A stretch of 63,974 nucleotides of DNA, counting the filler, from Candidatus Woesearchaeota archaeon (lineage in GTDB: Archaea > Nanobdellota > Nanobdellia > Woesearchaeales > BM511): NCBI GenBank assembly GCA_023266675.1. It is 7 parts of 7 records of this genome, joined end to end, with 100 filler letters (N's around TTAATTAATTAA, not from the genome) between each part and the next. Parts side by side here need not be neighbours in the genome. Positions count along the whole stretch, not along the records: positions 10,400 to 20,134 come from JAHFPP010000050.1; 6 more parts are not named here. One strand, given 5' to 3'. The notes under the pieces are model-generated. The model was not told where the DNA came from. It made no database searches and saw only the letters and a list, made by a program, of their open reading frames with translations. The position numbers were made by a program, and so were the translations under genes. Shown here one piece after another: positions 8,922-49,579 of this stretch. The number at the start of each line of letters is the position of its first letter. The stretch's first letter is position 1.

Positions 8922-10299
8922 ATGGAAGAAAACATCCCAATTTACAAGAAAGTAAAGTCAATATCATTTGGCCTCATATCACCAAAACTGATAAAAAAGA
9001 TGGCATCAGTAAAAATAGTAACACCAGAACTTTATGATAAAGAAGGATACCCAGTTGACGGAGGTCTCATGGACATCCGAATGGGAGTCATTGACCCTGG
9101 TTTAAAATGTAAGACATGCGGTTCAAAACTAAAAGAATGTATTGGACACTTTGGATACATTGAACTAGCTAGACCAGTAATCCACATAAACTTTACAAAA
9201 ATAATTCTTGACACACTAAGAAACACTTGCAGAGAATGCGGCAAAGTTCTTGTAACATCAAAAAAGAAAGGAGAACCAATAATAAACCTTGTTGCTGAAA
9301 CAAGCCTTTCAGATGATGACGAAGTAAAAGAAGATGCATCAGCACCAAAAGTCGCAGCACACGCGCCGACAGAAAGCAAAGCAAAAGCAGCAATGAAATG
9401 CCCGCACTGCAGCGCAAAACAGTACAAGATTCAGATTGAAAAACCAACAACTTATGTTGAAGACGGAAAAAGAATCTCCCCAATCGAGATAAGAACACGA
9501 CTTGAAAGGATACAGGATAAGGAACTTGAAAAACTTGGAATGAACCCTGAAATAGTAAGACCTGAATGGGTTGTATTGACGCTTTTAGCAATCCCTCCAG
9601 TAACAATAAGACCTTCAATCACACTAGAAAGTGGAGAAAGAAGCGAAGACGACTTAACACACAAGCTCGGAGACATCGTAAGAATCAATCAAAGATTATT
9701 TGAAAACATAAACGCAGGAGCGCCAGAAATTATCATCGAAGACTTATGGGACTTATTGCAGTACCATATAACAACATTCTTTGACAACGAAGTTCCTCAG
9801 CTACCGCCAGCAAGACACAGAAGCGGTCAGCCACTAAAAACAATAACTGAAAGAATCAAGTCAAAAGAAGGAAGAATCAGGCACAACCTTGCAGGTAAAA
9901 GAACAAACTTTTGCGCAAGAACAGTAATCTCACCAGACTCAATGCTCGCGCTTGACGAAGTAGGAATACCAAAAGAAGTCGCAATGAAGCTAACAGTTCC
10001 TGAAAAAGCAACAAAATGGAACATGGACTTCCTAAAGGAATTCATAAAAAGAGGACCAAAAGATTACCCAGGTTCAAACTATATGATTAGGCCTGACGGA
10101 CGAAAAAAGAAAATAACTGACGAAACAAAAGAACAGTTAATCGAAGAATTCCAGCCAGGATATGTAGTTGAAAGACACATAATGGATGGGGACATCGCAA
10201 TCTTTAACAGACAGCCATCACTTCACAGAATGAGCATGATGTGCCACAAAGTAAGAGTACTACCAGGACTAACATTTCGACTAAACCCTGCAGTATGCG
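8922..10299 (+). CDS. rpoA1: RNA polymerase subunit A' (Rpo1N), 3'-truncated at contig end
   Basis: CIGHFGYIEL, GKRTNFCARTVISPD, NRQPSLHRMS, ends at LNPAVC before the gap. Confidence 0.97.
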
Positions 10300-10399: not shown

Positions 10400-10715
10400 C
10401 TGCAATAGTATAATCTCTGTTTCTTGGAATATAAACTCCAAAAAAAGGAGTGCTAGTCATCGCTCTTTGTTCAAGTGAGTTATCAGTTTCCATTATTATA
10501 AGTGAATTAAATAAAATAACAGATATTTAAGTATTACTATGATTTAGTAGATATGTTATGAGATAAGATTATTCTAATAATATTTAGTTGAAGATTTATA
10601 GTAATCAGGGTTAATGATGTTATTTCAGTTTAATAAATATAATATAGCAATATGTATACTGCAGTAGATAGATTTAAATATATTGTAGATAATACTATAC
10701 TAATAGGGGGAAATT

Positions 10716-10998
10716 ATGGCAAGAAAAGACTTTGATGAGCTGCTCGATTCCCAAAGAATGCTGCAGTCAAGGGTTGTGCGCGACCAGGAAATGGATGAAA
10801 CTATTGATATCCTTGCAATAATCANNNNNNNNNNGCGAAATCGCACCGTACCCTGACCAGAAACTCCAGAAAGAAGCTGTGTTTATTGAGGCTGAAACCA
10901 AAGGTATTGGACACGAGATAACTCAGAAAGTTTTTGAAAAGCTTATCCATGACAGGATAATATTTGAGCCTGAAGAAGGGTTCATACAAAGAAGATGA
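10716..10998 (+). CDS. Small winged-helix-like protein (MCM C-terminal WH-like), spans a 10-N scaffold gap
   Basis: Manual translation MARKDFDELLDSQRMLQSRVVRDQEMDETIDILAII/EIAPYPDQKLQKEAVFIEAETKGIGHEITQKVFEKLIHDRIIFEPEEGFIQRR*; AGGGGG SD-like element upstream; missed by ORF track because of the gap. Confidence 0.7.
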
Positions 10999-11002
10999 TT
11001 TT

Positions 11003-11446
11003 CTAAGTAAACGTTTCAAAAATTAATATTAATAAAAATACAACATAAAACTTAACAATAAACTTGTCTCTAATCTTTGAATAGTTTATAAGAGAATTAA
11101 ATGCTGACTCCAATTCTTTGCTATTTTGTTTTTTTATCAATTCCATATTATATGCCTTATTAAAATAATTGTCTGACTTGGGTTTTGACAGCGCTTCAAA
11201 AAGAATGAATCGTTTAAGTGTTGATTTTACAAATTCATGGTTTTCTTTGTACCATTTAGAAACATCTTTTTTTCTTATAAAAGCAGGAATCTGTCTTTGT
11301 AAATTTGGATATTTTAAGTTCATGAATTTCCAGAGTTTCATAATTTTAACGCTAGTAATTGTGATGAATATCACTATTAAGAAAAATATTATTATGAAAA
11401 GTGAAAATAAGGTTATTCCAATTAATTCTGTTAAGTTGTATATCAT
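11003..11446 (-). CDS. Hypothetical membrane protein
   Basis: N- and C-terminal hydrophobic helices. Confidence 0.6.
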   Translation of the reverse strand: MIYNLTELIGITLFSLFIIIFFLIVIFITITSVKIMKLWKFMNLKYPNLQRQIPAFIRKKDVSKWYKENHEFVKSTLKRFILFEALSKPKSDNYFNKAYNMELIKKQNSKELESAFNSLINYSKIRDKFIVKFYVVFLLILIFETFT

Positions 11447-11538
11447 TAATTAACACCAATCGGATTATTGGCCAGAGTCTATAAATAAGTTTCTATTAGA
11501 ATTAAAAGAAATATAAAGTAAAAAAATATTTAAAAAGA

Positions 11539-12873
11539 TTATCTTTGTGAACCTTCGCCACGTGTTGGGCGCCGTCCAAAGCTTCTTTGGCCTGAAAATC
11601 CGCCACTTCTTGGTCTGTCTCCGCCACTGCTTCCGCCGCCAAATCTTCTAGGTGCTCCTTCCCCTTCCCGTCTTGGTCCTCTGTCGTTTCTTCCTTCACG
11701 GTTTCTGTCGCCAAACCTTTTTTTCTGGAATCCGCCAGAGCCGCCGCTTTCATTTTTGAAAGGAATTTTTTCATAAGATTCAAGCGTTATCTTTTTTATC
11801 TCGTTTCCTCTTACTCTCATTATTCTTCCAAAGTTTTCGTGGTCAAAGTCGCATACTATGGAAATTGAGCTTCCCAATTTTCCTGCTCTTGCTGTTCGTC
11901 CGATTCTGTGAGTGTATGTTTCAGGCGTATCAGGCAAATCATAGTTATATACGTGTGAGATATTCTCGATATGTATTCCCCTTGCTGCAACGTCTGTTGC
12001 AACTAAGATGTTTATTCTTCCTGATTTGAACTCGTCAACTACCCTGTCTCGCTGTCCCTGGCTCATGTCGCCGTTTAGCGCTTTAGCTTTTATTCCCTGC
12101 TTGTACAGGTTTTTGCTTAGGCTGTCTGTCATTCTTTTTGTTTTGCAAAAGACCAGGCATGTTTCTGATGTTTCCTTTTTTAGGAAGTGCAAAAGCACTG
12201 AGAACTTGTCGCTTTGCCTAACATCGCAGTAGTATTGCAGAAGTTTTCCTTTTTCAATTGTTGACGCCACTGAAACCTTTTTTGGATTTACTAAATATTT
12301 TTTTGCTATATCCCTTATTTCTGGCGGGTATGTTGCTGAGAAAAACATTGTCTGCGGTTTTTTTGGCACTGAGCGAAATATTCTTTCAATGTCATTGACA
12401 AATCCCATGTCAAGCATCCTATCAGCTTCGTCAAGAACTATTACTTTTATGTTTGCAAGTTTTAACTCATTTCTCTTTAATAGGTCAAGTATTCTTCCAG
12501 GTGTTCCTACAACTATATCTGTTCTGTGAAGCTCCCTTATCTGAGCACCAATTGACGCTCCGCCGTATACTGGAAGAACATATATTTTTTTTCCTTTTGA
12601 GAATTTATGGAATTCATCAGTAATCTGCCGTGCAAGTTCCCTTGTTGGCGCAAGAACTAATCCCTGGATTCCTTTTCCTCTCTCAAATTTTTCAATCATT
12701 GGTATTGCAAAAGCTATTGTTTTGCCTGAACCTGTCTCTGATTGGGCCTGCACATCGTGGCCTTTGATTGCGTCAATTATGACTTCTTTTTGTATGTTTG
12801 TTGGAGTTACTATTCCGTGTCTTGTTAACTCTAAAAGTGTCTCGCTACTTATATTCATATCTTTAAATTCCAT
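11539..12873 (-). CDS. DEAD-box RNA helicase (CshA/DeaD-like)
   Basis: TGSGKT, PTRELA, TPGR, DEAD, SAT, HRIGRTAR; R/G-rich C-terminal tail. Confidence 0.97.
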   Translation of the reverse strand: MEFKDMNISSETLLELTRHGIVTPTNIQKEVIIDAIKGHDVQAQSETGSGKTIAFAIPMIEKFERGKGIQGLVLAPTRELARQITDEFHKFSKGKKIYVLPVYGGASIGAQIRELHRTDIVVGTPGRILDLLKRNELKLANIKVIVLDEADRMLDMGFVNDIERIFRSVPKKPQTMFFSATYPPEIRDIAKKYLVNPKKVSVASTIEKGKLLQYYCDVRQSDKFSVLLHFLKKETSETCLVFCKTKRMTDSLSKNLYKQGIKAKALNGDMSQGQRDRVVDEFKSGRINILVATDVAARGIHIENISHVYNYDLPDTPETYTHRIGRTARAGKLGSSISIVCDFDHENFGRIMRVRGNEIKKITLESYEKIPFKNESGGSGGFQKKRFGDRNREGRNDRGPRREGEGAPRRFGGGSSGGDRPRSGGFSGQRSFGRRPTRGEGSQR

Positions 12874-13344
12874 TTTAGTTTTCCTCGCTGTTTAGAGAAA
12901 ATATTCAACTAGTGATTCCACAAAAGATCTTTATGTTTTTTATTAAAAAACGATGTCTTTATGGTTTATTTATTTTTTCACATTAGTTCATATCAAAGAA
13001 AAAGTACGCATACTGTGATGCATTCATAATCCCTAAAACGTGAAATAATCTTTTAAATTTTGATTTTCGAGTTAGACAGTCTTATTGACTGCTAGGGGTT
13101 ATTACAACCTTCTTTGAGTTTATTCTCTTATATATATATGGAATTAGCGGTGGTTTATAAATGTTGGGATGATTAAATATATAACCAGAATAAAAATATG
13201 AAAGTAAGTCTTCGTTAATCATAATTTAATAAGAGTTTACTTGATTAATGTTTTAAAATGATAAATTTTATTAATGGATGCATATCCATATATAGTCTAG
13301 ATATAATAAAGTAGTATATTAAAAAAGATATAGCGAGAAGAAAT

Positions 13345-14448
13345 ATGAAAGAAACTGTTCAAAAAATACTTGATGACGCTGATGTAAAAATCAATGGAGA
13401 TAGAGATTGGGATATCCATGTTCATAATCCTGATTTTTATCAGAGAGTTCTTGCCCAAGGCTCGCTAGGCCTTGGCGAATCATACATGGAGGGATGGTGG
13501 GAAGTAAAAAAATTAGATGAATTCATATTCAGACTTATGAAAGTCGAAATTGACAAAAAAATTATTTCTCCGCTTTTTGTTTATCATTTTATCAAAGCAA
13601 AAGTTGTAAATGTACAGACAAAAACAGGGTCAAAGAAGGTTGCAGAGCTTCATTATAACCTTGGAAATGAATTCTACTCTGATATGCTTGACAAAAGAAT
13701 GCAATATACATGCGCTTACTGGAAAGATGCAAAAAATCTTGATGAAGCACAGGAAAAAAAACTTGATATGATATGCAAAAAACTTGAGCTTAAGCCAGGC
13801 GAGAAGGTTCTTGAACTTGGCTGCGGATGGGGTGGTTTTGCAAAATACGCTTCTGAAAAATATGGAGTTGAAGTTACTGCTTACAACATTTCAAAAGAAC
13901 AGGTAAAGTATGCAAGAGATATAACAAAAGGACTTAAGGTAAAAATAATTGAAAGCGATTACAGGGACGCCAAAGGAAGATATGATAAAATAGCCTCAAT
14001 AGGTATGTGTGAGCATGTCGGATACAAGAATTATAGGATATTTATGGAACTAGCAGATAAATGCCTAAAGGATAACGGGTTATTCCTGATTCATACTATA
14101 GGCGCAAACAAATCTAAAACGCATACTGACCCATGGATAGATAAATATATTTTTCCAAACTCAATGCTGCCATCAGCAAGACAGCTAACTGAAGCTTTTG
14201 AGGGAAAATTTGTTCTTGAAGACTGGCATAATTTTGGTCCTGACTATGACAAAACACTTATGAAATGGTTTGAGAATTTTGATAAAAATTGGCACAAGCA
14301 CAAAATGAAATATGATGAAAAGTTTTACAATATGTGGAAGTTTTATATTTTGTCAAGCGCTGCTGCATTTCGGGTGAGAAATATTCATCTTTGGCAGATT
14401 ATTCTTTCAAAAGGACGACGACCAGGAACATATAATTCTATAAGATGA
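13345..14448 (+). CDS. cfa: Cyclopropane/methylene fatty-acyl-phospholipid synthase (Cfa/TmpB-like)
   Basis: LGLGESYMEGWW, HYNLGN, QYTCAYW, LELGCGWGG, GMCEHVG, PWIDKYIFP motifs. Confidence 0.93.
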   Translation: MKETVQKILDDADVKINGDRDWDIHVHNPDFYQRVLAQGSLGLGESYMEGWWEVKKLDEFIFRLMKVEIDKKIISPLFVYHFIKAKVVNVQTKTGSKKVAELHYNLGNEFYSDMLDKRMQYTCAYWKDAKNLDEAQEKKLDMICKKLELKPGEKVLELGCGWGGFAKYASEKYGVEVTAYNISKEQVKYARDITKGLKVKIIESDYRDAKGRYDKIASIGMCEHVGYKNYRIFMELADKCLKDNGLFLIHTIGANKSKTHTDPWIDKYIFPNSMLPSARQLTEAFEGKFVLEDWHNFGPDYDKTLMKWFENFDKNWHKHKMKYDEKFYNMWKFYILSSAAAFRVRNIHLWQIILSKGRRPGTYNSIR

Positions 14449-15806
14449 CACTAACACCAAAACATGCATACTTTGCAAAAAAGAACTCTGTTAGCAAAGA
14501 ACTTAAGAATGTTGAAGGACAGATTTCTATTAAAAAGAAAACGTCTAATCTTTTTGGAAACCGTGTGCTTCACACAAGGGATGGTCTTGACCTGCGCAGT
14601 TTTAATTCAATCATTTTTATTGATGAAAAAAAGTTAACTGCTGAAGTTGAAGGACTTGTTACATACGAAGAGTTAGTGAAAGCCACACTGCAAAAAGGCC
14701 TTGTGCCAACAATAGCTCCGGAATTGAAAAGCATTACTGTCGGCGGCGCATATGCAGGCGTTGGAATAGAATCATCCACATTTCGCTACGGATTTATGCA
14801 TGAGACAGTGCTTGAAACAGACATCATAACAGGAAAAGGCATAATTACTTGCAATGCAAATGAAAACAAGGATTTATTCTTTGCATTTCCAAACAGTTAT
14901 GGCACACTTGGTTATGCCATCAGACTAGTTATTAAACTAATTCCTGCAAAAAAATATGTGAAGATTGAGCGTGAACGATTTGATGATATTGATGAATACA
15001 CATCACGTATGGGAAAACTCACCAAGCAAAATCAACCGAAAGGACCGCTTGATTATATTGATGGGCTTATTTTTGGAGAACATGAAATGTATGTTATCAA
15101 AGGAACTTTCACTGATACGCCAAAATTTGTGAGTTCGTACACTGGAATGGATATATATTACAAATCTGTTCGCACAAAGACAGTTGATTATCTTACAACA
15201 TTTGAATATATTTTCCGCTATGACACGGATTGGTTTTGGAATTCAAAAGCATTTGGACTTGAAAACAAATTCCTGCGTGCTTTAGTTCCAAAAAGCCTTA
15301 TGCGCTCAGATGTTTACTACAAGATTATGCGCTTTGAAAACAAACATAAAATCTTTAATCCAATAAAGCATTTTTTTGGAGCTAAAAAAACAGAGCAGGT
15401 AAGCCAGGATGCGGAAGTTGTAATAGAGAAGGCGCCTGAATTTGTTCGTTTTTTTCTTAAAGAGATATGCGATGATATCCCTTTAGTATATGCTCCAGCA
15501 AAAGCCTATAATCCAAAAGCAAAATTCGCACTTTGGCCAAACTTTGGAGACGAGATTCGTATGAATATAGGGTTTTATGCGCCGATTCCAACAACACACC
15601 CGAGTGGATACTTTAACAGATTATATGATAAAAAAGTTATTTCGCTTAGCGCATTTAAGATGCTTTACTCAGATGTATATATGACATCAAAAGAGTTTTG
15701 TAGCATGTTTGACAAAAAAACATATGATGAAGTGAAGAAGAAGTATGACCCAAAAAAGCAGTTTAGAGATTTATATGAGAAGTGCACAAGCAGACAAATA
15801 AAATAA
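14445..15806 (+). CDS. FAD-binding oxidoreductase of BfaA/TmsA/TmpA (Rv3719-like) type
   Basis: TSNLF, ITVGGAYAGVGIESSTFR, FPNSYGTLGY, YTGMDIYYKS, RYDTDWFW, LYSDVY..KYDP..DLYEK; ATGA overlap with cfa. Confidence 0.85.
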   Translation: MTLTPKHAYFAKKNSVSKELKNVEGQISIKKKTSNLFGNRVLHTRDGLDLRSFNSIIFIDEKKLTAEVEGLVTYEELVKATLQKGLVPTIAPELKSITVGGAYAGVGIESSTFRYGFMHETVLETDIITGKGIITCNANENKDLFFAFPNSYGTLGYAIRLVIKLIPAKKYVKIERERFDDIDEYTSRMGKLTKQNQPKGPLDYIDGLIFGEHEMYVIKGTFTDTPKFVSSYTGMDIYYKSVRTKTVDYLTTFEYIFRYDTDWFWNSKAFGLENKFLRALVPKSLMRSDVYYKIMRFENKHKIFNPIKHFFGAKKTEQVSQDAEVVIEKAPEFVRFFLKEICDDIPLVYAPAKAYNPKAKFALWPNFGDEIRMNIGFYAPIPTTHPSGYFNRLYDKKVISLSAFKMLYSDVYMTSKEFCSMFDKKTYDEVKKKYDPKKQFRDLYEKCTSRQIK

Positions 15807-15819
15807 AAATTCAGATTTC

Positions 15820-16149
15820 TTATTGACTAAAGTTTTCCATTTTTTTAAAGAGAAGATAATTCATCCATGTGAATAGTATTCCTAATACTATTGACAATAT
15901 TATCATCAACTTTTTATCCATCTCTTTTTCAGTTATTTTAGAGTTACATAATTTTGAGATTAACCAAGGACTTAAAACCAGCCAAGTAAAAGCAATCATA
16001 ACTTCAAAAAAGAGTGATAAGAGAAATAATTTTTTCTCAAAATAATAAGCAAAAGAAAAATACGGATTCAAAGAATAAAAGAGAAAATTTAAAAAAATAA
16101 TAATAGCAAACGGAAGGAAGAAATACAAAATGTTATTTTTAATGTTCAT
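15820..16149 (-). CDS. Hypothetical membrane protein (3 TM)
   Basis: Three hydrophobic segments. Confidence 0.6.
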   Translation of the reverse strand: MNIKNNILYFFLPFAIIIFLNFLFYSLNPYFSFAYYFEKKLFLLSLFFEVMIAFTWLVLSPWLISKLCNSKITEKEMDKKLMIILSIVLGILFTWMNYLLFKKMENFSQ

Positions 16150-16195
16150 AGAATCTTAATAATTTTATTTATTCATAAATCTTTTGCAAAAAAAA

Positions 16196-18493
16196 TTAGT
16201 ATCCAAACAAAGTCTTTTGCGTCTGGCCTTTGATTAAGTCATCGAAGTTCTGGTCAAAGAACACAAGCACTGCGTCAGCTAGAGGCTTAACCTGCTTATC
16301 TATATAATGGTCGTAATCTATTTTGGCCTTAATTTTCTGTATAGGTTGCGGTCCGTCAATAGTCATAACATAAGATATTATATATGAATCAATCTTGTCA
16401 AGCATCCTTGCAGCCTTAACATGCGGAGGCGTGGTTTTTGTGTACGCAGTCTCATCTTTTCTTAATGATTTTCTGTAAACAAGTTTGTTGTCAAGCTTCC
16501 CTGCCTTTATGTCTTTGACATACTGCTTGACGTATTCAGTGATTTCTTTTTTGTGAAAAATCCTGTCAAATATTTCTAGCTGGAAATCCTTTGCAAGGTC
16601 AGTCCAGTCACGGCGTACAAACTCCATGCCTGTAAAATCTATCTTTTCCTTGCCATCTTTCATCAGCAGGCCTGCATATCTCTTTTTGCTTCCTGCGTCG
16701 CCGTGCCTGACTTTTGGCATCATGAATACTTTGAACGTTTTTTCAAACTGGATTTCAAGGAAATTTTTTCTATTGTAATTTTTAACATAATTAGTGAAGA
16801 ACTCGTTTACGCTGACTGCAACTTTTTCGCCTATCTTTTTTGCATCATCATAACTTTCTGCATTGCTTTTTACAAAAATAGAATCTGTGTCTCCATAGAT
16901 TACTTCGTATCCAAGTTTCTTGGTTTCTTCTGTTGCCATTTTTATTATTGCCTGGCCAAAGTGAGTTATTGCGTTTGCCATTTTTAGCGAAAAGAATCTG
17001 CATGTAGGATTTGCAAGCACTCCAAAGAAGCTGTTCATGTGAATTTTTATTGCCTGGCTTGCAAGAGGATTCTTTTCAAGTTTAGCCTTATCTCTTTGGT
17101 CCCATAGTTGCTGTAAAATCATTGGAAGTATGCCGTCCTGATTCCTGAAGCACGCTCCGTTTGGTGCAGTAATAAGATTTTCTCCCTTGCAGTCTTCAAC
17201 AAATGACCATGGGTCGATATTAAACGTTCTCATGATTGAAGGATACAGACTTTTAAAATCAAGCACAAGAATGTAATCGTATATTCCCGGTTTTGATTCC
17301 TGCACAAATCCTCCTTTTATCCTTGTTTCATCATCTCCTTTCTTTGCTGAGTATGCAACGTAGCCTCGCTTTCTTAATTCCCGAAGGTACAATGAGTCAA
17401 GAGATGCAATACTTGACTTTACTTTATCAAGCTGCATACCAGTCAATAATGAACGCTGTATTGTAAGGTCAATGACTTTTGTCTTATCTATTATGTCAAT
17501 TACAAGCTGCGAATCTTTAAGATTGTAATCAACTAGAAGCTGCTGGTTATTTTTGTACGCATTTTCTATGTCTTCACCTTTTGATGCCTCACCGATAAGT
17601 TTTTCTTCGCCAAGGAATTCCTCTGCTGCTGTTGCAAGCTTATAATCGTCAAGCTTTATGAATGAAGATTTCATTAGGTGTATTCCGTCAAGCAGCATCC
17701 TTCCCGGGAAATCCGCTGATGAATCTTTAAAGAAGCTTGCTTCAAGACGAAGACTGCATGGCCATTCTGTTCGTCCTAAGTCAAATGGTATTTTATATGA
17801 CTTAAATTTTGCTTCAATAACCTTGAAATCAAAATCGATAAGGTTCCATCCTGTTATTATGTCAGGGTCAAGCTCCTTAACTTTTTCCCTGAAAGTCTCT
17901 ACAAGTTTTTTCTCTGAGTCAACAACTATTGCGTTGTTTAGATTTTTATCTGACTGAATTATTACCTGTTTAAAATCGTCGCACACCATTGATATTGAGA
18001 AGAGTTTTTCTGCCTTCATGTCTGTTTCTATGTCTAGCGACAAAACCTTTAGTTTTGGGAAATATGCTGCAGGAGTTAGTTTAGGATTTTCGTAAATTCT
18101 GTCAACATAATTACCTTTCTTATATTCCCCGTCAATATCCGTTGACCCAAGAATGCCATTATCCATCATGAAAAGCATTACAAACCTTAAGTCTGCTTCG
18201 TAGCAAACAATGCTTTTGTCCTCAAACTTTCTTCTCGCGTCCCCAATTTGTTTTGGAAAATTGAAAATTATCTTTACAAGTTCAACATCATTGAAATCTT
18301 TTTTAACTCCTTCTTCAACTATAAAAGTTTCAAGTTCAAGCGCCTTTGCGACGTCTGACTTTTTTATGTAAAAATAAGGCTTATAATCGTGTATTGATAA
18401 GAAGCTCTCGCCGTTTTCAAGGCGCCCAAAGAGGTAAACCTTTGTAACGTCTTCAACTATCCTGTAAGTTGGATACACTATGAATGCTTTCAT
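16196..18493 (-). CDS. polB: Family B DNA polymerase, bacterial Pol II-like
   Basis: Exo I SLDIET, Exo II GWNLIDFD, DFKSLYPSI, KIHMNSFFGVL, YGDTDS, GSKKRYAG, PPHVKAAR. Confidence 0.95.
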   Translation of the reverse strand: MKAFIVYPTYRIVEDVTKVYLFGRLENGESFLSIHDYKPYFYIKKSDVAKALELETFIVEEGVKKDFNDVELVKIIFNFPKQIGDARRKFEDKSIVCYEADLRFVMLFMMDNGILGSTDIDGEYKKGNYVDRIYENPKLTPAAYFPKLKVLSLDIETDMKAEKLFSISMVCDDFKQVIIQSDKNLNNAIVVDSEKKLVETFREKVKELDPDIITGWNLIDFDFKVIEAKFKSYKIPFDLGRTEWPCSLRLEASFFKDSSADFPGRMLLDGIHLMKSSFIKLDDYKLATAAEEFLGEEKLIGEASKGEDIENAYKNNQQLLVDYNLKDSQLVIDIIDKTKVIDLTIQRSLLTGMQLDKVKSSIASLDSLYLRELRKRGYVAYSAKKGDDETRIKGGFVQESKPGIYDYILVLDFKSLYPSIMRTFNIDPWSFVEDCKGENLITAPNGACFRNQDGILPMILQQLWDQRDKAKLEKNPLASQAIKIHMNSFFGVLANPTCRFFSLKMANAITHFGQAIIKMATEETKKLGYEVIYGDTDSIFVKSNAESYDDAKKIGEKVAVSVNEFFTNYVKNYNRKNFLEIQFEKTFKVFMMPKVRHGDAGSKKRYAGLLMKDGKEKIDFTGMEFVRRDWTDLAKDFQLEIFDRIFHKKEITEYVKQYVKDIKAGKLDNKLVYRKSLRKDETAYTKTTPPHVKAARMLDKIDSYIISYVMTIDGPQPIQKIKAKIDYDHYIDKQVKPLADAVLVFFDQNFDDLIKGQTQKTLFGY

Positions 18494-18566
18494 AAGAAAA
18501 ATGAAAGAATTTCTTATATATAAGCGTGATGGAGAAATATATTTTAAAATTTGGTTATCGGGATAA

Positions 18567-19178
18567 TTATCCGTAAGAATGATTTAGACCAGTAATTAGA
18601 GGATTTGATGAGTTTTCCTGTTTTGCTTTACCTCCATTATTAGAAGGCATAAGACATAATATTCTGCCATTCCCTTTAGGTGTTACTGTTAAAATTGGAG
18701 CGTTTGTCAAGTTTTCTCTTTCTAAATCATGCATATACATTTCAAATATTCCTACCTTTTTATATGCTTCACAATAAGTTGACCATCGGAGCATTTTTTT
18801 AGATAGTAAAGTGCCAGAGTCCATAATTGAAAGTCTGGCAACATCATCAACTGAATCAATGGGTCGAAAAGGTGTTAATTTATCTTCAGGATTATCTGCC
18901 ATTTCAGGCGTTATCAAAGCCCACAATAAACCATATCTTATCGGTTTTTCTTCATTAATAAAATCCTGACAAAACCAGATACCAGGTAATGTTGATAAGT
19001 CTACTTTGTAAAATTGTTTTGTTTCAAAATGAGGAACCCAAAGTTCGTTTCCAATAAATGAGTAATGTGATAACCCCACCCGTTCCATATAAGGATAGGA
19101 TCTTATTTTATGTGTTTTATAATTATTAATAATTCTGCCAATAACTTTTTCAAGAAATTCATTCATAAAAAAGAACAC
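18567..19178 (-). CDS. Hypothetical protein (orphan)
   Basis: 203-aa ORF with its own TATA upstream; no family recognised. Confidence 0.65.
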   Translation of the reverse strand: MFFFMNEFLEKVIGRIINNYKTHKIRSYPYMERVGLSHYSFIGNELWVPHFETKQFYKVDLSTLPGIWFCQDFINEEKPIRYGLLWALITPEMADNPEDKLTPFRPIDSVDDVARLSIMDSGTLLSKKMLRWSTYCEAYKKVGIFEMYMHDLERENLTNAPILTVTPKGNGRILCLMPSNNGGKAKQENSSNPLITGLNHSYG

Positions 19179-19265
19179 TGATAAAGTTATTTATATAACT
19201 ATTGCTAAATGAGAACATAAACTAATTTATTAATACAAAAAAAATTAAAAAAATAATTTAAAGTT

Positions 19266-20134
19266 TTACACTATTGGTATTGCGCCTGTCTTGTCAACTA
19301 GTTCAAGCTTGTTTACGCTGCTTAAGTCATCGATTTTGTTTATTCTTAACAATCCTGATGATTTTGTGTATAAAAGCTCGTTTATGTATAGGCTTCTTTC
19401 GACGAGCGGTCCGTAATAGTTGTTCCCGCTTCCGCTGCTGTGGTCAATTATTCCTCGTAGTGTAATTCCGTTTTTTGTTATGTTAAAGACCATTGCGCCG
19501 TTGTATTCCTGACCTTTGGTGTTTCCAGTGTAATCATAGTTGTAGTTGTATGCTGGGATTACAAGGAGATTTTTTTCTTTTGAAAAAAGGAATGCCTTAT
19601 GCTCCCATTCTGCTGTTGACTGCGCGTATTTTTCTGTTGTTACAAAACTTGCCAGTGTTTTTGGATTCTCTACATCAGTAACATCGAACAATGAAATCTT
19701 TAATCCTTCGGTTCGTCCATTATCAGTCGCATCGCGTCCAATACCTATTATTGTGTTTTCATCATATGGATGAAGGTATCTTGAGAATCCTAGAAGCTTT
19801 AACTTTCCAAGCTCCTTAATGTTTGACGCGTCTGACAAATCTATTACAAAGAATGGGTCAACCTGCTTGAAAGTCACCATATATAATCTGTCACCGATAA
19901 ACCTTGTTGAATAAATCTGTTCACCTTTTGCAAGCCCTTTTAGGCTTCCAAGAATCTTAAGATTTTTATCAAGTGTATATACTTGGTTTTCTGACTCGGT
20001 TACATCATTTCTTGGCAGAATGCTTGACGCTGCCATCTTTGCATCAGAGGCAACTGTTTCTGTAGCTACTCTTTTTGCATAATAAATTGGCAGCCATCTC
20101 TGGCTTATTGTTGTTGCTATCCTTAACACGTCAT
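19266..20134 (-). CDS. Beta-propeller domain protein (secreted type), 5'-truncated
   Basis: LRIATT, GEQIYSTRFIGDRLYMVTFKQVDPFFVIDLSD, GFSRYLHP, GLKISLFDV. Confidence 0.88.
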
Positions 20135-20234: not shown

Positions 20235-21220
20235 GCATTGGCCTCACTATTGAGACAAGACCTGACTTTGGACTTCTTAATCACGGAAATGAAATGCTTG
20301 AGTACGGCTGTACACGTGTTGAACTTGGAATTCAGGCAACTGACGACAAAATATTGAAATTTGTAAACAGAGGACATGGAGTAAAAGAATCTGTTTAATC
20401 AACAAAGGTGCTTAAGAATTTAGGCTTTAAAATAAATTACCATATGATGCCAGGCCTTCCACTATCAAACAATAAAAAAGACTTACAGATGCTAGTTGAG
20501 ACGCTTGAAGACTCAGATTTTCGCCCTGACATGTACAAGATATACCCAACAATGGTTATGAAGGGAACAGCTCTTTACAGGCTATGGAAAGCTGGAAAAT
20601 ATTCTCCTTTATTACGGGAAGACGCTGCTGACATAATTTCAGAATTTAAACGAAAAATACCTTACTGGATAAGAATAATGAGGGTGCAAAGAGACATACC
20701 AACACACGTCACCGAGGCTGGCGTTGACAAGACAAACCTTCGCCAGTACGTTGATAAAATGCTTACTTTAAAAAACATAAAATGCAAATGCATACGATGC
20801 CGCGAAGCAGGGCTAATGTCGCTTAAGCAAAAAATCAGTCAGGAAAAAATTAAACTTTTTACAGAAGAGTATTTCGCGTCAAAAGGAAAAGAATACTTCA
20901 TATCATTTGAAGATGATAAACGAGAATTCTTGTTTGGATACTGCCGCCTAAGGTTCCCGTCGCAGTTTTTGCGAAAGGAAATAACAAAAGATTCTGCGCT
21001 TATTAGAGAGCTTCACGTTGTTGGCACAGCAATTGGAATTGGCGAGGAAGGAAACATGCAGCACAAAGGGTTTGGAAAAAAACTTTTACAGAAAGCTGAA
21101 GATATTGCTAAGAAAAATAAAAAGAAAAAAATTGTTGTAATATCAGGAGTTGGTGTCAGACCATATTATAAAAAACTCGGATACAAATTAGAAGGACCAT
21201 ATATGGTTAAAGAGATTTGA
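20235..21220 (+). CDS. elp3: Elp3 (tRNA U34 carboxymethyltransferase; radical SAM + KAT), 5'-truncated, in-frame TAA at 20396-20398
   Basis: IGLTIETRPD, TRVELGIQ, NRGHG before the stop; HMMPGLP, RVQRDIP, CIRCRE, RELHV, QHKGFGK, ISGVGVRPYY after it, same frame. Confidence 0.92.
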
Positions 21221-33916: not shown

Positions 33917-35023
33917 ATGTTTAGAATAAAAGATGAATCTGGAAAAGCAAGAACAGGAAAACTAAGACTGAGAAGTGGAAATGTGAACACTCCTTTTTTC
34001 ATGCCTGTAGGCACAAAGGCGAGTGTAAAAAACCTTTCTCCACGCCAACTTGAAAAGACAGGGACTGAATGCATTATTGCAAATTCATTTGTTTTGTCTT
34101 TAAGACCTGGTGCTGAATTAATTGAAGAGCACGGCGGAATTCACAAATTCATGAATTGGGAGAAAGGGATATTCACTGACAGCGGCGGTTTTCAGGCCGG
34201 TTCAAAAGATTTCTTGATTGGAATAAAAGATGATGGAATAAGGTTTAGAAATCCTTATCTTGGAAAAGAGGAATTGTTGACTCCTGAGAATTCTGTTAAA
34301 ATTCAAGAATCTTTGAGAAGTGATGTTGCAATGATGCTTGATGATATGCCAATTCCAACTGCACCAATCAATGAAGTAAAGAAAAGCGTTGAGCGAACTC
34401 ACGCTTGGGCAAAGAGATGTCTTGAAGCTAAGTCTGACAAAAAACAGTTGATGTTTGGAATATCGCAGGGTGGAGTGTATAAAGATTTAAGGAAACTTAG
34501 CGCGAAAACAATCAATTCAATGGAATTTGATGGTCTAGCAATTGGTGGCCTAGCAATTGGAGAGACAAAATCTCAGATGTTTGATGCACTAAAAGTTACT
34601 TTGCCTAATTATGATAAGAGCAGACCGCGTTATATGATGGGGCTTGGCTCACCGGAAGATATTATACTTGCAGTTGAGAACGGAGTTGACTGCTTTGACT
34701 CGATTTTTCCAACACAAAATGCAAGACGTTCAACACTATTAACGTTTAATGGACCTGTGCACTACAAAACTTCAAAGTATGCAAAGGATTTTTCACCGAT
34801 TGAAGAAGACTGTGATTGCTACGCATGCAAAAATTTTACTAAAGCATACGTTCATCATCTTTTGAAGACTTATGAAAACTTTGGACTAACTCTTGCAACA
34901 ATACATAACATAAGGTTCATGCAAAGAATGATTGATGAAATAAGGACTGCGATAAAAGAAGATGATTATGAAAAATTCAGAAAAGAATTTTTAAAGAATT
35001 ATACAAAACGAAAAATTGATTAA
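33917..35023 (+). CDS. tgt: tRNA-guanine transglycosylase, bacterial (G34) type
   Basis: TPFFMPVGT, LRPG, FTDSGGFQ, GISQGG, IGGLAIGE, CDCYAC..H Zn site; 368 aa with no PUA tail. Confidence 0.93.
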   Translation: MFRIKDESGKARTGKLRLRSGNVNTPFFMPVGTKASVKNLSPRQLEKTGTECIIANSFVLSLRPGAELIEEHGGIHKFMNWEKGIFTDSGGFQAGSKDFLIGIKDDGIRFRNPYLGKEELLTPENSVKIQESLRSDVAMMLDDMPIPTAPINEVKKSVERTHAWAKRCLEAKSDKKQLMFGISQGGVYKDLRKLSAKTINSMEFDGLAIGGLAIGETKSQMFDALKVTLPNYDKSRPRYMMGLGSPEDIILAVENGVDCFDSIFPTQNARRSTLLTFNGPVHYKTSKYAKDFSPIEEDCDCYACKNFTKAYVHHLLKTYENFGLTLATIHNIRFMQRMIDEIRTAIKEDDYEKFRKEFLKNYTKRKID

Positions 35024-48626: not shown

Positions 48627-49037
48627 TCATCTTCTAAGTATCTCAAAATCTTTATATTGTTCAAATCCTTTTTTTCTAATAACAACATTATATTTCCCTT
48701 TGTGTTTTCCTTCTTTTGTTGTCTTACGCCATAATTTTTTAAAATCAACTGAAGGAATGATATAAAATTCATCTTGTTCTTCCACATAAAATATGAAATA
48801 ATAATTATCTCTTAAATCAACATTTAATCCTCCGAAATTGCGTCCTTGAGTAGCAGTCTTAGAACTTGCTTTTATTTGAATATCTAGATATTTTGTAGAA
48901 TCAACTCGAATTACACAATCTATTCCTTGATCATCCACTAATGTTTGATATACATCAAAATTTCTCTTCATCAATTCTGCTATAACTGCATATTCATTTC
49001 TTTTTCCAAAAGAAGCATTATTTCTAAATACTCCCAT
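48627..49037 (-). CDS. Small PD-(D/E)XK nuclease-fold protein
   Basis: GKRNEY (helix Glu), DDQGIDC, DIQIKA. Confidence 0.8.
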   Translation of the reverse strand: MGVFRNNASFGKRNEYAVIAELMKRNFDVYQTLVDDQGIDCVIRVDSTKYLDIQIKASSKTATQGRNFGGLNVDLRDNYYFIFYVEEQDEFYIIPSVDFKKLWRKTTKEGKHKGKYNVVIRKKGFEQYKDFEILRR

Positions 49038-49096
49038 TAGTTAAAACCTCAGTAAATTTTCATTAACTATTTTCATTTCACATTCTCATACTTGAT

Positions 49097-49579
49097 TTAT
49101 TCTTTTGATAGTGCATATATCAATAATCCAATAACACCAACAGCAACTACTGCCTGTAAGTTTTCCTTTTTCTTTGAATTTTCAGCTACATACTGGAGCA
49201 GTTTAGGCATTTCTTGATTTCTTTTCTGTTCATCATATAAGGATAGGTAAGTTATTCCTGCTAACAAAGCATCAGGTTTTGCTTCTACATCGAGAAGAAT
49301 TGGGATTATCATTTTGTTATTGCCTTTTGCCACACCTATCTCTTGTTGCACATAAGTGGATTGAATCGAATTTTTACTATATAAAACAATAAACAAGTCA
49401 CACGCCATTATCCTTTGAATTATGTTAACGCTTAATTGACCAAAAAGAGTTTGTGATTCAAAAAGAAATATTTGAGTGTTAGTTATCTGTTTAAAATATG
49501 AGTCTAATTTTCGAGCAGTTTCACTATCTTTAATGCTGTAACTTATGAAAATATTAAAAACCATAACTCTTCTCCTCAA
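49097..49579 (-). CDS. TIR-domain protein with C-terminal hydrophobic tail (probable ATG at 49564)
   Basis: IFISYS, CDLFIVLYSKNS..S.YVQQEIG (catalytic Glu), IIPILL. Confidence 0.9.
   Translation of the reverse strand: MRRRVMVFNIFISYSIKDSETARKLDSYFKQITNTQIFLFESQTLFGQLSVNIIQRIMACDLFIVLYSKNSIQSTYVQQEIGVAKGNNKMIIPILLDVEAKPDALLAGITYLSLYDEQKRNQEMPKLLQYVAENSKKKENLQAVVAVGVIGLLIYALSKE

Follow-up and report, generated by a model that had tools for sequence, protein, structure and literature searches.

Here, we describe a genuine operon of two translationally coupled genes in a groundwater archaeon of the Woesearchaeota type (DPANN) with a small genome, in which cfa, encoding an S-adenosylmethionine (SAM) methyltransferase of the Cfa family (P0001), is followed by the gene for a flavin adenine dinucleotide (FAD) oxidoreductase (P0002). 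The window, that is, the whole stretch of DNA analysed (63,974 nucleotides), comprises seven contigs of a single metagenome-assembled genome (MAG; GenBank assembly GCA_023266675.1, G000 below; 1.22 Mb in 83 contigs, completeness 95.9%, contamination 0.9%) separated by spacers of the form N44-TTAATTAATTAA-N44, and the pair lies on the second of these contigs (G000:C21; 9,735 bp; window positions 10400-20134). The original prediction, made from the window alone, had described an ATGA-coupled pair of Cfa-family and FAD genes, and both open reading frames (ORFs) were found at exactly the positions it gave; the junction letters, ATAAGATGACACTA (also given as AGATGACA), contain the shared ATGA, and a single Logan contig piece (14106-15295) spans the junction.

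The most likely role of the pair, to which we assign about an even chance, is the methyl-branching of scavenged ester lipids, with the product, the source of the substrate and the reductase step all being predictions. Acting on membrane phospholipid, the methyltransferase would place a one-carbon unit on a cis double bond of an acyl chain, and the flavoenzyme, assigned to the BfaA family, would reduce the resulting exomethylene group to a saturated mid-chain methyl branch, as in lipids of the tuberculostearic type; P0001 appears to carry the lipid-binding N-domain and the bicarbonate site as in E. coli Cfa. The substrate would be ester phospholipid acquired from a host or neighbour. Cfa-type enzymes depend on cis-unsaturated acyl chains within a phospholipid bilayer, and the acquisition of these lipids is the simplest reading.

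The cfa product was matched to the Pfam family CMAS (PF02353) at 277 bits (cut-off 27) and to NF008686, the NCBIfam equivalog for cyclopropane fatty acyl phospholipid synthase, at 562 bits, above the curated cut-off of 400, with residues 2-365 aligned over the full length (profile positions 17-381 of 383). Identity between P0001 and E. coli K-12 cfa is 48% over the whole length (tblastn), and the match of P0001 to the E. coli Cfa structure 6bqc (E-value 1.6e-119, residues 6-361) includes the N-terminal domain. Identity to the BfaB-like partners found in actinomycetes is 27-31%, and in the Cfa tree P0001 falls within the E. coli-type clade, with the BfaB-like proteins forming a distant, long-branch clade. 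The methyltransferase, labelled Cfa/TmpB-like in the original prediction, is thus of the E. coli type and does not belong to the BfaB type, so that the 10-methylene and 10-methyl products stand as predictions. The residues C123, E223, H250, I252 and Y301 of P0001, which we take to be the equivalents of the bicarbonate-site residues C139, E239, H266, I268 and Y317 of E. coli Cfa (the letters agree in the alignment), are also present in nearly all other aligned rows. Because BfaB, as described in PMC7791843, keeps the bicarbonate-site residues too, they do not discriminate between products. The closest relatives of P0001 belong to bacteria with acyl lipids (Nitrospira, Acidobacteria and the candidate phyla radiation, CPR), and protein names at NCBI already include such Cfa proteins in Woesearchaeota and Nanoarchaeota MAGs.

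The second protein, P0002, has FAD_binding_4 (PF01565) as its sole Pfam match (46.6 bits, cut-off 26.4). Its residues 7-447 are 41% identical to the product of a Mycobacterium yunnanensis gene located directly upstream of a Cfa-family gene, and over ~420-445 residues it is 40-43% identical to products of genes upstream of Cfa-family genes in Mycobacterium, Rhodococcus, Gordonia and Actinomadura. In a tree of the FAD proteins rooted on archaeal paralogues, the actinomycete clade (support 100) is nested within the family of P0002. P0002 itself clusters with one sequence from Woesearchaeota (support 98) and, beyond it, with three more archaeal sequences (support 92). On the evidence of full-length similarity and tree nesting, P0002 and the actinomycete BfaA-like reductases are members of one family, in agreement with the reductase assignment of the original prediction. 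The archaeal sequences form three groups or more, with CPR bacteria placed between them; a single archaeal clade was not rejected (p-AU 0.27). An AlphaFold model of P0002 built from a 28-sequence alignment (pLDDT 84, pTM 0.87) has a two-domain VAO-type fold, the nearest solved structures in Foldseek being cytokinin oxidases (E-value 1e-22, TM 0.63-0.65) and DprE1 (1e-18 to 1e-19); no solved structure closer than these VAO-type folds was found. Eight genomes of the phylum (loci L109-L116, in G188, G268, G385, G314, G066, G273, G120 and G108) carry FAD_binding_4 proteins of a second subfamily, with 31-35% identity to P0002 and no adjoining cfa.

Three described systems invite comparison with the archaeal pair. 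The BfaA/BfaB system of the tuberculostearic acid pathway of actinomycetes (earlier TmsA/TmsB) is encoded by an operon in which the gene that encodes an FAD-binding oxidoreductase overlaps the methyltransferase gene by 4 bp, and E. coli with bfaA and bfaB together converted oleate to 10-methyl stearate (PMC5660069); BfaB forms a 10-methylene intermediate that BfaA reduces with NADPH (PMC7791843). The FAD-first layout of the actinomycete loci is that of the published bfaA-bfaB operon, and these loci fall inside the same FAD family as P0002. The archaeal pair resembles the Bfa system in joining a Cfa-family gene and an FAD oxidoreductase gene in an operon with a 4-bp overlap, in the full-length homology of P0002 to the actinomycete relatives, the clade of which is nested in the same family, and, presumably, in acting on monounsaturated acyl chains bound to phospholipid. 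It differs in that the methyltransferase gene comes first, whereas the reductase gene is first in the Bfa operon, in that the methyltransferase is of the E. coli type and distant from BfaB-like proteins, and in that its host is an archaeon in which fatty-acid synthesis was not found, with a product predicted from the genes. With E. coli Cfa (6bqc; NF008686), P0001 shares its high identity, a score above the equivalog cut-off and the bicarbonate-site residues; however, E. coli cfa stands alone beside ribC and punC, whereas P0001, which has Cys in the place of the E. coli Phe238, is part of a clade whose members usually have a BfaA-like reductase as partner. The TmpB/TmpA system of Desulfobacteraceae and Marinobacter, which makes 10-methyl palmitate, has the same order of methyltransferase and then flavoprotein and a Cfa-family methyltransferase, TmpB, that forms a 10-methylene intermediate (PMC7791843). 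TmpA, though, is described there as a geranylgeranyl-reductase-like flavoprotein without meaningful homology to BfaA, whereas P0002 is of the VAO/PCMH type with an FAD_binding_4 domain; going by that published description, the label "TmpA-like" given to P0002 in the original prediction does not hold. Finally, cfa was reported in 2024 in Woesearchaeota MAGs of oxygen-deficient zones (PMC10936187; repeated in PMC11868695), that is, in the same kind of archaeon and for the same gene family; the passages on cfa in these reports mention the gene and name neither a reductase partner nor a methyl-branched product.

The association of the two genes extends far beyond this archaeon. When 185,579 species genomes were searched with an alignment of the FAD protein alone, at least 600 stretches were matched, and among the best 80 loci, which were kept, 76 from many phyla have a Cfa-family gene that adjoins the FAD gene and shares its strand, a frequency far above that expected by chance. 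The FAD gene comes first in 45 loci, mostly from actinomycetes (Actinomadura, Spirillospora, Rhodococcus, Gordonia, Mycobacterium, Nocardiopsis and Prauserella), with methyltransferases 27-31% identical to P0001. The reverse order, with cfa first, was found in 31 loci from Woesearchaeota/Nanoarchaeota, CPR, Nitrospira, Acidobacteria, Chlamydiae and proteobacteria, where the methyltransferases are mostly 50-66% identical to P0001, with the exception of a separate proteobacterial clade (32-36%). In a second scan, anchored on Cfa and comprising 80 metagenome loci, the FAD gene lies beside cfa in 41, being 3' of cfa and on the same strand in 39 of these; the two exceptions have it upstream, either divergent (L172) or on the same strand (L231). 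Flanks of at least 700 nt contain no FAD gene in 21 of the 80 loci, and 18 could not be judged.

In all four Nitrospira loci (L039, L042, L057 and L059), a gene for a fatty-acid desaturase lies directly 5' of the E. coli-type cfa and the FAD gene (in L039, at 1868-2728), an order that fits a sequence of desaturation, methylation and reduction. Nitrospira makes 11-methyl palmitate, and these three genes are a candidate pathway for the methyl-branched acids of this genus; our search of the literature found no usable gene assignment for these acids. It also found no description of a class combining an E. coli-type Cfa with a BfaA-like reductase, and no paper linking BfaA-type genes to archaea or CPR. 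Because the FAD tree places P0002 with the BfaA family and the Cfa tree places P0001 with the E. coli type, the archaeal system is a hybrid relative to those described, its reductase being of the BfaA type, its methyltransferase of the E. coli type and its gene order tmp-like. Three points appear to be new, namely the presence of the reductase partner in archaea, the recognition of the wide class of E. coli-type Cfa joined to BfaA-like reductases and the sharing of this class among DPANN and CPR.

The most discriminating column of the Cfa alignment is the residue that precedes the catalytic Glu, which is Phe238 in E. coli and Cys222 in P0001, and no column cleanly splits linked from solo sequences. 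In the first set, the FAD-linked Cfa proteins (n = 36) have Cys (25), Met (5), Thr (4), Phe (1) or Leu (1) at this position, and the solo Cfa proteins (n = 19) have Phe (10), Ile (5), Cys (3) or Val (1); all 11 actinomycete BfaB-like proteins have Thr. In the metagenome set, Cys or Thr is found in 40 of 41 linked and in 4 of 21 solo Cfa proteins. Counted by rows, Cys or Thr occupies this position in 46/49 linked versus 7/40 solo sequences, and in a tree built jointly from the 89 rows, the residue switches only 3 times, compared with 7 switches of linkage. The column was considered as a specificity residue and rejected: it behaves as a clade marker, and tests on independent pairs had either no power or no co-variation. 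As far as the alignments go, Cys or Thr here is the mark of a subfamily usually partnered with a BfaA-like reductase; because of the few changes on the tree and the lack of co-variation, it is not independent evidence of different chemistry.

To place the pair among the lipid genes of its host, 10 Pfam families, with positive controls in 14 named genomes, were searched on a six-frame translation of the genome, an inventory narrower than a full annotation. In G000, which is 95.9% complete, this search returned no match to PcrB/GGGPS, CarS, ketoacyl synthase (KAS), PlsC-type acyltransferase, CDP-alcohol phosphatidyltransferase or fatty-acid desaturase. It did return one UbiA-family prenyltransferase (G000:C46:19179-20091, maybe split into two frames), one polyprenyl synthase and a PLD-type, cardiolipin-synthase-like ORF with two PLDc_2 domains (G000:C4:33555-34304). 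By this inventory, the archaeon has no known route to either kind of glycerolipid but does have a few lipid-handling enzymes, which is the usual DPANN picture; because no route to ether or acyl lipids was found, ester phospholipid from a host or neighbour is the likely substrate. An inventory of lipid genes had been proposed as a check in the original prediction, and its outcome, with no recognisable lipid-building genes, fits scavenging.

Several observations weigh against methyl-branching, and some of them favour a different reading, in which the methyltransferase makes ordinary cyclopropane acyl chains and the FAD protein acts on another lipid or a quinone-like substrate, being merely co-regulated. 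P0001 passes (562 against 400) the equivalog cut-off for a true cyclopropane synthase, resembles E. coli Cfa (48%) more than the actinomycete BfaB-like proteins (27-31%) and keeps all catalytic and bicarbonate-site residues; solo Cfa of the same clade is present in 33 of the 43 Cfa-bearing genomes of the phylum; and the solved folds nearest to the FAD protein are oxidases and dehydrogenases. Furthermore, a test of any pair of an E. coli-type Cfa and a BfaA-like reductase was not found in the literature, the Cys/Thr signature tracks clades rather than linkage and fails to co-vary in independent pairs, and the comparison of P0002 covered relatives, in other actinomycetes, of the experimentally tested BfaA. 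No cfa lies within 4 kb of the closest FAD relative (L021), an FAD neighbour is missing beside some cfa genes of the Cys type, among them the closest one (L163; 73% identity, flanks ~700 nt), and the inventory that points to scavenged lipids covers only 10 Pfam families on six-frame DNA and includes a UbiA-family match and a polyprenyl synthase. Against the cyclopropane-only reading stand the 76 of 80 loci, from many phyla and with either gene order, in which a member of the FAD family adjoins a Cfa-family gene, the reduction of the product of a Cfa-family enzyme by the one tested class of members (PMC5660069, PMC7791843) and the desaturase-cfa-FAD order in Nitrospira, which fits a linear pathway. 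Judging from this gene conservation, the reductase partner argues for an end product other than cyclopropane, and we consider the cyclopropane-only reading unlikely. A substrate of another kind, namely unsaturated archaeal ether lipids or polyprenols, acquired or self-made, whose double bonds the pair would methylate and reduce, is very unlikely. The host is an archaeon, its genome retains a polyprenyl synthase and a UbiA-family prenyltransferase, and the folds nearest to the FAD protein act on prenyl-bearing substrates; yet the whole of P0001, N-terminal domain included, can be aligned with E. coli Cfa, its closest relatives are found in acyl-lipid bacteria, and GGGPS and CarS were not found in the genome by the six-frame search. 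Known Cfa-family enzymes act on cis-disubstituted olefins and are not known to act on trisubstituted isoprenoid bonds. The unsaturated isoprenoids that the original prediction had entertained as substrates find no support in these data.

Methyl-branching by an archaeon also presupposes that the contig is archaeal, and a misbinned or chimeric contig carrying a pair from a bacterium of the same sample, such as a CPR organism, has to be weighed; we regard this as extremely improbable. In its favour, the genome is a MAG of 83 contigs, C21 contains a 10-N gap (10825-10834), close homologues occur in CPR bacteria, and the FAD gene is found in none of 40 same-family or same-order relatives. The caveat of the original prediction that the contig lacks an archaeal marker, however, falls away, as C21 carries a gene for a family-B DNA polymerase (PolB), a lineage marker, which ends 390 bp downstream of the FAD gene on the opposite strand, with no N between it and the pair. 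PolB was matched in 41 of 41 genomes searched and is 69% identical to that of G001, of the same family, 55-57% to those of the other two family members and 46-57% across same-order genomes with an orthologous copy; because identities are highest in the same-family genome and lower across the order, it tracks the phylogeny of the genome itself. Its named relatives in the database are labelled Candidatus Woesearchaeota, Nanoarchaeota or DPANN archaeon, with one exception labelled Bacteroidota. The tetranucleotide profile of C21 correlates with the genome mean at 0.989, among the best for its length, and both genes are typical of the genome in GC3 (z-scores of -0.17 for cfa and +0.07 for the FAD gene, relative to genome ORFs) and in codon distance (percentiles 43 and 33). 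In Logan contigs from two groundwater samples of one study, C21 is covered at an even depth of 5-7, and the stretch from the FAD gene through u109 to PolB is bridged in both samples, with one 2,015-nt piece covering 15680-17694; the best Logan match may be the source sample, which makes this an independent assembler rather than independent data. Other contigs of the window carry split rpoB, rpoA', L10/P0 with an archaeal insert, TFS and TrmB, and three loci of other archaeal MAGs have the pair in an archaeal gene neighbourhood (L022 with NucS and Nre, L024 with Nre and LeuRS, L020 with ribosomal protein L10e), the pair being present in 10 of 400 genomes of the phylum. Composition and codon use are native to the genome, and C21, hence the location of the pair, is archaeal.

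The distribution of the pair was surveyed across 400 high-quality genomes sampled from the phylum. An E. coli-type cfa is present in 43 (a count that includes the unpublished G407, otherwise left out) and a FAD homologue at E <= 1e-30 in 16, of which 9 have orthologues (42-46% identity) and 7 only the 31-35% paralogue lacking an adjoining cfa. The linked pair was found in 10 genomes, in 3 of which it is cut by a contig end, with cfa first in G080, G108, G142, G196, G312, G204 and G116 and the FAD gene first in G072, G357 and G202; because the other 33 genomes with cfa have it alone, the pair is patchy in the phylum. In the same-family relatives the pair is absent (0/3), with no cfa in the 3 same-family genomes and no orthologue of the FAD gene in the 40 same-family or same-order relatives. 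Horizontal transfer is part of the best explanation for the presence of the pair. In three relatives (G002, G003 and G037), a homologue of a small ORF of C21 is convergent with the 3' end of PolB, at a distance of ~16-22 bp in G003 and G002 (loci L014 and L018) and ~600 bp in G037 (locus L013), whereas in this archaeon the small ORF and PolB are ~5.2 kb apart. Judging from this synteny, the intervening segment is a probable insertion or rearrangement that brought in the pair. At its borders, no flanking direct repeats, integrase or tRNA were found; because of this and of the native composition, the event was not recent. The DEAD-box helicase in the segment shows the same 42-46% identity to its counterparts in every relative, which does not point to an origin, and homologues of PolB, the helicase, u109 or u147 occur in none of the 80 metagenome Cfa loci.

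A joint in Logan contigs that connects positions 11532 and 16177 and skips 11533-16176 (the helicase, cfa, the FAD gene and u109) was considered as well and set aside, as the fit on either side is limited to 22 AT-rich letters and the flanking sequence does not resemble the window. The joint occurs in one contig in each of two runs, at depths of 12.3 and 10.4, above that of C21 itself, and may reflect a relative of greater abundance in which the site is empty, or a match by chance. A relative with 78% identity in PolB and 66% in Cfa may carry both genes on one 21,322-nt contig.

Features of contig C21 around the operon, with positions counted along the window
Feature	Position	Strand	Description
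Small ORF	10717-10998		interrupted by the 10-N scaffold gap at 10825-10834
~5.2-kb segment	10999-16195		u147, DEAD-box helicase, cfa, FAD gene and u109
u147	11003-11446	-	small hydrophobic protein, no Pfam match
DEAD-box helicase	11539-12873	-	divergent from cfa
Intergenic region	12874-13344		AT-rich, 471 bp, between the divergent DEAD-box helicase gene and cfa
cfa (P0001)	13345-14448	+	367 aa; E. coli-type SAM methyltransferase of the cyclopropane-fatty-acyl-phospholipid-synthase family; Cys222 precedes catalytic Glu223
ATGA overlap	14445-14448	+	cfa stop TGA and FAD gene start ATG, read from the sequence; translational coupling
FAD oxidoreductase gene (P0002)	14445-15806	+	453 aa; BfaA-family, presumed methylene reductase
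u109	15820-16149	-	small hydrophobic protein, no Pfam match
PolB	16196-18493	-	family-B DNA polymerase, Pfam DNA_pol_B and exonuclease domain; lineage anchor, context only

The promoter of the pair presumably lies in the intergenic region upstream of cfa, judging by its position. Promoter and terminator scans with a sigma-70-type model, which is ill-suited to archaea, gave nothing beyond shuffled sequence (22 promoter sites versus 15.8 expected). No RNA data set was among those listed for the stretch, and the one metatranscriptome of the same sample has no contig on it; these negatives are uninformative on expression either way.

Elsewhere in the window, the first contig (G000:C18) encodes a long RelA/SpoT homologue (6-1775, + strand; domains HD_4, RelA_SpoT, TGS and ACT), the 5' end of which is cut by the contig, along with tRNA-Asp, tRNA-Lys, split rpoB and rpoA'; this gene for a (p)ppGpp enzyme of bacterial type may also have reached the DPANN archaeon by transfer. 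At 33917-35023 (+ strand), the archaeal genome encodes a queuine tRNA-ribosyltransferase of bacterial type (368 aa; PF01702, 454 bits). At 48627-49579 (- strand), a gene for a TIR_2-domain protein (49097-49579) adjoins an ORF resembling PD-(D/E)XK nucleases (48627-49037), a possible defence pair. Genes cut by contig ends include rpoA' (8922-10299) and those for a Beta_propel protein (19266-20134) and an Elp3-like radical SAM/GNAT protein (20235-21220).

Archaea are defined partly by their isoprenoid ether membranes. It is possible, and we advance it tentatively, that DPANN and CPR, the two radiations of very small symbionts that scavenge lipids, share and exchange a single cassette, consisting of a Cys-type Cfa and a BfaA-like reductase, that turns unsaturated ester phospholipids of their hosts into saturated, methyl-branched ones, and that this archaeon has a bacterial-type acyl-ester or mixed membrane. 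If true, this would amount to a natural crossing of the lipid divide and a pointer to a bacterial host, and would reveal an unassigned groundwater source of mid-chain methyl-branched fatty acid biomarkers. The comparison also outlines a large class of Cys/Thr-type, E. coli-like Cfa proteins joined to BfaA-like reductases in Nitrospira, Acidobacteria, Chlamydiae, CPR and DPANN that are currently annotated as plain cyclopropane synthases; if these enzymes make methyl branches, the annotation misleads the interpretation of biomarkers, and the class could supply new enzymes for the production of branched lipids. An intact operon with native codon use, the only known substrates of which are unsaturated acyl chains of ester phospholipids, in a host without lipid synthesis of its own, would be concrete, testable evidence that some DPANN cells hold and remodel bacterial-type lipids, with a bearing on the identity of DPANN hosts.

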